From Mobula birostris (lineage: Eukaryota), in assembly GCF_030028105.1 (NCBI RefSeq), contig NC_092391.1, positions 25,145,223 through 25,209,222 on the forward strand: DNA of 64,000 nt. The letters run 5' to 3'. A model generated the notes under the pieces. It was not told the origin of the DNA. It did no database searches and worked only from the letters and a program-made list of their open reading frames with translations. The position numbers were made by a program, and so were the translations under genes. This document shows positions 6,981 to 9,900 of the stretch, piece by piece. Within the stretch, counting starts at the first letter, position 1, and each line of letters starts with the position of its first letter.

Positions 6981-9900
6981 GTCAGGAACGGCCGTGGTGT
7001 TGAAAATCGACCCTAGCAGCCACTTTGGTCCGACGGTAGCTCCCAGTCTCTGAGACTGGGAATTAAACTGTGAACTGGGACTTCAATTCCCCGCCCCCAG
7101 TCAGAATAATGACCTCCTTTGGCCTCATCTTTAACTTTGGGAGTTGAGGCATCTGCGCTGATAATCATCCAGTGTTTTGGTTCGATAGTGAGTGAATGGG
7201 TCATAAAGTGTAAATTTATCCCATAGGATGTTTTATTGAGATGCCGGAGGAGCTCCCGGTTCATGGTGACGCTCACTCCCTGAAGACGGTGTTCCTCTTC
7301 CAGTTTGCCTTCCTTAAAGGTGTGCCCAACATGTAGATCTTTTAACATCTTTTCCAGATCAATTTGGTAATGAATCATTTCACTTCAGTTCAATTACGAC
7401 TGCATAGGCTTTAAAAAACAGAAAATACTGGAAATATTCATGCTGGAAAGAAAATAAAACAGCTTGCATTATACCTTGATGACATCCATTTAAAATTAGA
7501 TAGTCTGGTAACAAGTTAGGAAGATTGTTGAATTCGGCGTTGGAGTCCTGGAATGAAGATTTAAGCGCAAGATTTGGGTAGACATGTCCAACACTCAAGT
7601 GAGGGAGCGTGACACTGTTTTCAGAGCTGTGCTATGCGGGTCGTTCCAGCGCGCATACTCTACGATGTCAATTGCTGAGAAATCTTTGACGCAGTTAAAC
7701 ATCCCCTTTGGCCAGTCTGAAACTCAACTATTCCAGATCAAGGTGTTGTCCACGACGGAGTACTGCAAACTTGTACGCTGTAGGATAATAGCTGTGCAGA
7801 AATTTGCAATGAAACTAGGAGCAGACGGTTTGTGCGGAGGGGCTAGTTTAAGGCTCTTGCCATACATGCGAATAAGTTCATTGGGGCTGAATAAAAATGG
7901 TAACTGAGGTACTAATGTAATGTAAATAACATGCTTGTTCATGTTACATTTGATATTTTATGATTAAAGTATATTTTCAGATTTTTAAAAGTAAACACTG
8001 TCAGGTGAGGTGCCGTCTGCTGGTACTGTAAATATTGTTTTGAAGAACTTTAGTTCTTCACATCTTCTGGCCAATATTTCTTTGAATCAAGACGACTTAA
8101 AATGGCTTCATATTACTGAACGATTTTATATGAATCCTAATTATGAAAGGTGGTTAGGCTGAAAATCTAATCTTTCTCTCTCAACAAATGCTGCCCTTCC
8201 TGCATATTTCCAGCATCTTCTGTTTCTATGTTATGTTAATGAATGTGTTTGTTTCGTCAGTTCTTAACCAATCTGATAAAAGTACTTCAGATATTGTGTA
8301 AAGATGTGATTACTTTGACTAAAGCAAATGGACTTGGGTATCTATTTCTATTTGGTGTTCTTCAGAAATGATTTAACATGGAGAATTGATAAGTAATCAA
8401 ATGTCAACCTCAAAAGGCTTAGTAACAAGAAACTTAAGTAAAAGTACAGATCAAAATATTGGAACTGGTTAGATTTTTTTATACAGAAAATTGGAAGGGA
8501 ATATAATGTAACATGCATTGCAATTAAATATGGTAACAATAAACACACATCAAAGTTGCTGGTGAACGCAGCAGGCCAGGCAGCATCTCTAGGAAGAGGT
8601 GCAGTCGACGTTTCAGGCCGACACCCAAGGTCCTGACGAAGGGTCTCAGCCTGAAACGTCGACTGCACCTCTTCCTAGAGTTGCTGCCTGGCCTGTTGCG
8701 TTCACCAGCAACTTTGATGTGTGTTGCTTGAATTTCCAGCATCTGCAGAATTCCTGTTGTTTATGGTAACAATAATTAAGTTTTCTAACATTGGCGCAAG
8801 CTTAGGAACTAAGATGAAATCAAATGGTTCAGAACTTGGTATTATGTTGAGCCTTATGTCTGTGTCATTAGAAGAACTACCGATTTCTGTTGCCAATTTT
8901 GGGCTTCCCCAATCTTGTTCACTATACACTTCATGCATGCATTTGTTACTTCTAGACTTGACTATTCCACTGAATCTAGAAAATCAGAAATTTGTGAGGC
9001 CATTTGGCCATCAAATTAATCTGTAATTCTGTTGGTTTTATTTTGTGAAGTGCTCATCTATGTGCTATTTTTATTGAATGAGGTTTTATCCTTCGATTAG
9101 CCTTTTCAGGCAAAAATTCAAGAATCCTTCATCTCCAACCTGTTTCTTTTTTTTTGGATGATAAAACTAAAGAACTTTCATCAACTGCTTTTAAACCCCA
9201 TGGCCTTTGATTATTGAGATCTCTTGCTAAATGAGGTAATTATTTTTCTGTTCACCCAAATTCTCATCTTGTACAGACTGGTTAAATCTCTAGTCAGTCT
9301 CCTCTGTTCAAAGAAAACAATCCCATACCAGCAGGTCTCTCTTAGCTAAAATCTTTTATCCTTGGCAACATCGGAGCACAGCCTCAGAATAAAGGAATGT
9401 CCCTTTAAAAAACGTATGAGGAATTTCTTCATCCAGAGGGCCATGAATCTGTGGAATTTGTTGCCACAGAAGGTTGTACAGGCCACATCATTCGGTGCGG
9501 AGATTGATAGGTCCTTAATTGGTAAAGGGGTTAAGGGTTATAGGAAGCAGGCAGGAGAATGGGGTTGATTTTTTTTTAATCTGCCATGATTCAATGGCGG
9601 AGCAGACTTAATGGACTGAATGTTCTAATTCTGCTGCTATGTCTTATGGTCTTATAATATCCTCCATATCCTTTCTTGTGCTATTAGTTTCCAGCTGTAA
9701 TGTGAGTTGACTGGATCTGTAGCCGGTATGATAGCTTAATCAGTTTTTTTAGAATTTAGTATGACTTCTCTGATTTTGTATTCAAAGCTTCAGTCAATAA
9801 AAACAAATAACACATGTTGTTTTCATTACTTTATCTATCTTTCCTGTTTCAGAGAACTGAGTTTAAATCTCTGAACTTCAAGATGCCTCTTTTCTACACT

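Follow-up and report, generated by a model that had tools for sequence, protein, structure and literature searches.

A young insertion in intron 1 of a PKN gene is likely built from two head-to-head pieces of a hammerhead-bearing Penelope-like pseudo-LTR

A 219-bp palindromic insert in the window, by which we mean the whole 64-kb stretch of DNA analysed here, consists of a very abundant repeat end present twice, as two pieces joined head to head, and the palindrome itself is not the mobile unit. We consider it highly probable that the insert is a young insertion of two head-to-head pieces of a likely Penelope-like element (PLE) pseudo-LTR (pLTR), likely joined in a single insertion event. Its layout, the loopless palindromic helix III of its hammerhead motif and the cleavage of such motifs as dimers have all been published already for Penelope-type elements (PMC8557442, PMC3846280, PMC4209133).

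Results

Structure and age of the insert

The insert (8543–8761) had been described in an earlier note as 219 bp of DNA flanked by a perfect 14-bp target-site duplication (TSD), and both the length and the direct repeat are confirmed (Table 1). Inverted arms of 77 bp had also been reported; the arms are real, but they extend over 84 bp, with 8543–8626 pairing with 8641–8724, and the 77 bp correspond to their outer part only. Four mismatches interrupt the pairing, at 8571/8696, 8586/8681, 8619/8648 and 8622/8645, and the 37 bp at the right end have no mirror image. Folding of the 219-bp insert gave a predicted energy of −172.9 kcal/mol (z −24). The two junction bases at 8627–8628 do not continue the mirror image and, so far as could be seen, belong to no sequence shared by the family. 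Position 8629, a G in the focal insert, is an A in three of six aligned window copies. The minus-strand arm does not contain the CUGANGA box, so there is no ribozyme on the minus strand.

Table 1 Features of the insert, its host gene and related copies in the window
Feature	Position	Strand	Basis or remark
Left TSD copy, 14 bp	8529..8542		11/14 A/T; single copy at the empty site in organism B
Repeat end in inverted orientation, 84 bp, 5'-truncated and tailless	8543..8626	-	No CUGANGA box
Junction bases AAG	8627..8629		
Minimal type-I hammerhead motif, predicted cut after 8660	8629..8664	+	Sequence, descriptor, folding; PMC4209133 (in part)
Direct copy of the repeat end, likely pLTR core	8630..8724	+	Begins at the family's fixed 5' boundary
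One-sided 37-bp extension matching the Penelope 'tail'	8725..8761	+	Loose ends at 8542 and 8755/8762; PMC8557442, PMC3846280, PMC11167929 (in part)
Right TSD copy	8762..8775		
Host PKN gene, first coding exon (MAGDSQQ), followed by a GT donor at 6981	6960..6980	+	tblastn with P0007 and the N-termini of P0003 and P0011
Next coding exon (HR1a), at the end of intron 1; bounds approximate	10723..11019	+	
Old decayed copy: GIY-YIG-like stretch, then pyrimidine tract and decayed repeat end 6474-6558	5990..6560	+	Putative
Solo copy with tail, own 11-bp TSD, no inverted arm	12418..12571	+	

The insertion had been judged recent, and a search for the empty site in a relative had been proposed as a check. 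Such a site was found in organism B, where one contig spans 8200–8528 followed by 8762–9100 with one copy of the 14-mer. This flank differs from the window by 11 substitutions and one gap in ~668 columns, a divergence of ~1.7%. The absence of the insertion from so close a relative indicates that it is young, and the TSD is confirmed. The difference between the two arms, at 4 of 84 sites, is greater than expected from 1.7% flank divergence (p ~0.065); the excess could reflect an insertion that predates the split and was lost or left unsorted in organism B, reverse-transcription errors, or the use of two templates.

An abundant family with a fixed start and variable arms

The right part of the insert, 132 bp long, is a unit repeated in very large numbers, whose copies begin at one fixed position, 8629/8630, and end at either of two fixed positions 37 bp apart. 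Four other window copies were identified by blastn, all of them aligning from exactly 8630. A profile search of the window, with a profile built from eight of its own ten matches at E<1e-5, gave those ten matches, which represent eight loci, and 24 matches at E<=10. Two DNA runs contain 52,061 and 87,624 matching contigs, with a summed depth over 8634–8664 of ~2.3e5 and ~3.3e5 times that of the flank, a rough sign of abundance and not a copy number. Among the 24 loose-end positions listed of 982, contig ends pile up at 8542 (485 in X1, 512 in X5), 8630 (588 and 824), 8755 (200 and 193) and 8762 (510 and 570). None of these 24 lies at the cut site 8660/8661, and copies begin ~31 nt upstream of the cut. 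The majority letters preceding 8630 at the loose ends form a pyrimidine tract, ending in CA in X1, X5 and X17, which indicates that many copies extend upstream into a longer element.

The inverted arm behaves differently from these boundaries. Eight of the 15 contig joints listed (of 308) link 8570–8588 to 8630–8633, with short sides of 18–26 letters, and imply that other loci carry shorter inverted arms with the identical fixed start. The depth agreeing with the focal junction at 8627 was 0.04% and 0.06% of the depth at 8660, and in other family copies the arm is absent or of a different length. From the fixed start and two end zones, the variable arms and the rarity of the focal junction, it appears that every insertion generates its own mirror half. 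TSDs were identified at two of the seven window loci tested.

Several further arrangements were seen in the window and the contigs. In the solo copy, five extra bases separate the left TSD from the fixed start. An older head-to-head pair of a different subfamily lies at 32805–32968, where the inverted copy reaches the front edge of the hammerhead. At 53595–53735, inspection by eye suggested two head-to-head copies of which the inverted one carries the tail, which would mirror the focal arrangement; blastn did not confirm the inverted arm read at 53682. One listed joint in X5 leads from 8665 back to 8630 with four letters between, a local head-to-tail stutter of the hammerhead, and other contig joints connect 8762 to 8542. 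Within 58631–59085 lies another palindrome, unrelated to the first, of ~295 bp and 76% self-complementary, with partial repeats to 59085, and the sequence at 58521–58604 is common to 4337–4414 and 14680–14744.

The family sequence is also present in four presumed-RNA runs. Pattern scans gave no match in metagenome contigs or in prokaryote genomes, while two scans of viral contigs gave zero and one match, the latter (L001) sharing only a 20-mer and being unrelated. A literature search, with most subscription journals and repeat databases outside its scope, found no paper on the ray family or on two-strand priming in PLEs. The words 'Penelope' and 'ribozyme' do not occur in the main text of a ray genome preprint, whose repeat tables may list the family.

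Relationship to Penelope-like elements

In all likelihood, the repeat end is the hammerhead-bearing pLTR of an endonuclease-positive (EN+) Penelope-like retrotransposon. Described EN+ insertions (PMC8557442, PMC3846280, PMC2377424) share with the focal insert a direct copy joined head to head to an inverted, 5'-truncated one, a one-sided tail of 30–40 bp, a TSD and a hammerhead in the terminal repeat. The combination of an inverted 5'-truncated copy with such a tail is reported to be common in Penelope-like insertions (Craig et al. 2021, PMC8557442), and the examples of Arkhipova et al. (2013, PMC3846280) have an inverted pLTR, a 31-bp tail and a head-to-head arrangement. The focal insert differs from these in having no coding body between its parts and a direct copy that starts at a fixed family position, and its TSD is 14 bp long, against 8–10 bp in the rotifer examples (PMC3846280).

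The placement of the tail can be compared with the biochemistry of PAc, a Poseidon element from Anolis carolinensis (Frangieh et al. 2024, PMC11167929). According to the sections cited here, PAc nicks and extends both strands, prefers A/T-rich DNA, initiates at two sites, one on either side of the tail, and copies mostly uncut RNA. The ray repeat likewise has an A/T-rich target and fits two internal start points bracketing the tail downstream of the hammerhead and an uncut template, the biochemistry being that of PAc only. Non-LTR retrozymes (Cervera and de la Pena 2020, PMC7229834; Li et al. 2026, bioRxiv 10.64898/2026.07.22.740005) resemble the focal repeat in being non-coding and pLTR-related, with a type I hammerhead and dispersed monomers. 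Retrozymes, as described there, form head-to-tail tandem repeats with a ribozyme in each unit and circular RNA, whereas the focal insert is head-to-head with one complete motif. We do not class the repeat as a retrozyme: there is no head-to-tail array at the focal locus, and the copy ends listed ignore the cut site.

A putative old, decayed copy in the window contains a GIY-YIG-like stretch ~430 bp upstream of its repeat end and a few hundred bases upstream of PKN exon 1. Near 6016, this stretch reads like what we take to be a GIY-YIG endonuclease. It had no match in Pfam or Atlas, and a word-index search gave three candidates, none of them scored; phmmer returned two matches, both rejected as repetitive chance matches. 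No coding partner with a reverse transcriptase or GIY-YIG domain was found by any search of the window sequence.

The hammerhead motif and its predicted folding

The insert contains the core boxes CUGANGA and GAAA of a minimal hammerhead, a UH cut site, an extra base after A9 and a palindromic remnant of helix III. Helix I (8629–8632/8661–8664, 4 bp) is followed by CUGACGA (8633–8639) and a bulged A (8640), helix II (8641–8644/8649–8652, 4 bp) by GAA (8653–8655), and helix III is the loopless palindrome ACGU (8656–8659), with C17 at 8660. The core, stems I and II and the GUC triplet had been correctly recognized in the earlier note, which did not mention that the first helix II pair is a G8641–U8652 wobble. 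The conserved G10.1–C11.1 pair is absent from the focal copy, and three of seven window copies have a C at 8652, a CpG-prone site. A minimal-hammerhead descriptor applied to both strands of the window matched once, at the focal site, and the same descriptor gave no match in 100 first-order Markov sequences of 64 kb. Rfam gave no hammerhead among ten matches at E<=10 for the insert, the best five being miRNA models on the hairpin with values below gathering scores; as minimal hammerheads seem to lie outside the Rfam models, this null is not counted against the motif.

The loopless ACGU stem, which had been proposed to require a second copy, is indeed that of a Penelope-type minimal hammerhead as described in parts of Cervera and de la Pena (2014, PMC4209133). 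There, minimal hammerheads without a helix III loop and with palindromic 15.2–16.2 are found in thousands of mostly single copies, and dimers cleave weakly while monomers do not; minimal hammerheads also appear in Lunse et al., cited through the review PMC6765202. The focal motif shares the type I topology, 4-bp helix I and extra base between A9 and helix II with the PLE minimal hammerheads (PMC4209133), as well as the palindromic 15.2–16.2 and loopless helix III for which the dimer requirement is known (PMC4209133, PMC6765202). It differs in its helix II, which has 4 bp instead of the 7–8 bp of schistosome families, and in the G-U wobble that replaces G10.1–C11.1; cartilaginous fish are not named in the parts of PMC4209133 used here.

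The effect of the antisense arm was assessed by folding. Without the arm, the predicted pair probability of helices I and II was 0.49–0.97, and with the arm it was ~0, a predicted penalty of 34 kcal/mol on the hammerhead fold. This prediction agrees with the earlier proposal that the arm sequesters the ribozyme, and in the PKN pre-mRNA the motif would be zipped into an 84-bp hairpin and would not cut. The further proposal of a built-in off-switch is not supported, as the arm is irregular between copies and has no trigger; although sequestration is predicted, the arm is a by-product of insertion and not a switch. For the dimer, the double-hammerhead fold had −9.5 kcal/mol, compared with −20 kcal/mol for two monomers and −23.2 kcal/mol for the cofold optimum, in nearest-neighbour energies that ignore tertiary contacts of the core.

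Greater conservation of CUGANGA and GAAA than of flanking positions had been put forward as a check on the motif. In seven hand-picked window copies, 71 of 77 core letters were conserved against 392 of 508 elsewhere (permutation p 0.001), and exclusion of the focal copy and of CpG columns left 56/60 against 249/306 (p 0.006). These counts do not refute the ribozyme, although a downstream block at 8680–8698 is about as conserved (103/114). These counts were taken from window copies and not from contig variants, which split between the arms and drop differences near contig ends. The better conservation of the core suggests that source elements may have been under selection.

The host gene

HR1-repeat exons lie on the plus strand of the window. 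With exon 1 at 6960–6980 and the next exon starting at ~10723 on the same strand, the insert lies in sense orientation in intron 1. A presumed-RNA contig covering 6863–6980 stops at the exon 1 donor; in the presumed-RNA contigs, the unique flanks and exon 2 are represented by traces only, and no splice joint is among the 15 joints listed. From the first coding exon to the end of the kinase, the gene occupies 6960–43478 in ~20 exons. Its closest proteins are ray PKN kinases named 'N2-like' (Hypanus sabinus 97%; Mobula birostris 100% over 86% of the query), and outside cartilaginous fish many of the listed matches are named PKN3 and others N2. The earlier placement in sense in PKN3 intron 1 thus stands for the orientation and for intron 1 of a PKN gene, whereas the identification as PKN3 is probable only, as judged from the protein matches. 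Within intron 1, a stop-free frame of 116 codons at 7557–7904 had no Pfam match.

Discussion

As the route to the head-to-head pair, we lean towards priming on both strands. In this pathway, a GIY-YIG endonuclease would nick both strands of the A/T-rich site 14 bp apart, and at each nick the reverse transcriptase would start a cDNA on uncut element RNA, with the 37-bp tail if it began at the outer start point and tailless if it began at the inner one. One cDNA would reach the family's fixed stop at 8629/8630, and the other would halt early. Repair would then join the two head to head with a few extra bases and fill in the 14-bp duplication, with the hammerhead as a passenger. Copies keep the whole hammerhead, beginning ~31 nt upstream of the cut, which implies that the template was uncut.

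In the simplest reading, the fixed boundary corresponds to the 5' end of the RNA, and we see the chances of the stop at 8629/8630 being that end as evenly balanced. The CA preceding 8630 presumably fits the initiator consensus. Transcription of Drosophila Penelope is reported to start inside the pLTR (Schostak et al. 2008, PMC2377424). A splice boundary is an alternative, since a pyrimidine tract and an AG can also be read in the letters before 8630, and helix I marks the end of the Penelope intron in D. virilis (PMC4209133).

With the same Penelope parentage, one cDNA or antisense RNA could have folded back and primed itself, a possibility that we regard as real yet doubtful. Self-priming on an antisense template was the mechanism favoured for head-to-head PLE inversions by Arkhipova et al. 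(PMC3846280), and helix I offers a short fold-back at the fixed end. If helix I were the fold-back, however, arms should stop near 8602, whereas that of the focal insert extends to 8626 and the joints listed (15 of 308) place arm ends at 8570–8588. The asymmetry of the tail moreover fits two start sites as described for PAc (PMC11167929). As an explanation for most of the arms, fold-back on helix I ranks below priming from two nicks.

It is also conceivable, if unlikely, that the 132-nt monomer constitutes a SINE-like, non-autonomous offshoot of Penelope in its own right, transcribed from short source copies of its own, with the inversion still arising at insertion. The start shared by the four other window copies and by the 588 and 824 loose ends would suit such an element, as would the solo copy with a TSD of its own, the family sequence in four presumed-RNA runs, and the finding that pLTR sequences were enough for mobilisation in trans in rotifers (PMC3846280). 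Against it, the pyrimidine tract before 8630 shows many copies continuing into a longer element, and equal stubs would result, as we infer from the PAc work (PMC11167929), if reverse transcription of an ordinary transcript began internally, near its 5' pLTR. The presumed-RNA signal, for its part, may be intronic read-through or DNA.

The earlier note had interpreted the insert as a non-autonomous, retrozyme-like element with a possible off-switch; that the whole palindrome moves as a unit, with the antisense arm as a selected off-switch, we find very improbable. One TSD does enclose both arms, helices I and II are predicted to be lost in the presence of the arm, and animal retrozymes are reported to derive from pLTRs (bioRxiv 10.64898/2026.07.22.740005). 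A mobile palindrome is nevertheless at odds with arms that vary in length and are often absent, with a focal junction at <0.1% of family depth, with the lack of a tandem array at the locus and with listed ends that do not fall at the cut site; a 34 kcal/mol lock without a trigger is not a switch. An origin as a MITE or other DNA-transposon foldback, or as an assembly artefact, can practically be dismissed: the insert is short, palindromic, non-coding and TSD-flanked, but its 37-bp tail is asymmetric, its TSD is 14 bp, its arm is variable, it carries a hammerhead motif, the family has solo copies and no symmetric terminal inverted repeats common to all copies, and both flank-to-insert junctions occur in contigs of the organism A DNA run (which may be the window's own source).

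Beyond two-strand priming of a Penelope-like pLTR, the stubs might be read as a fossil record of the vertebrate Penelope cycle, although we think it rather improbable that all of the following applies. Strong-stop-like cDNAs would run off the 5' end of the RNA, which would be the first base of helix I in an initiator-like sequence; each palindrome would combine the copies of two RNA templates, synthesised at both nicked strands; and the main role of ACGU would lie in pairing those RNAs, as a dimerisation signal does in retroviruses, more than in cutting. Hints in this direction are the fixed start, the one-sided tail, the uncut templates and the 4/84 arm differences (p ~0.065).

Taken singly, the locus is of little importance, being one stub among very many, with a ribozyme predicted to be inactive. 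RNA editing might act on the long hairpin that it places in sense in intron 1. What makes the insert valuable is that it is a clean example that can be dated and has an empty site. The origin of the inverted ends of PLEs and the role of their hammerheads are named as open questions in the cited part of PMC8557442. With a large family, a fixed start, two fixed ends and variable arms, junction counts in the ray could test the Penelope cycle.
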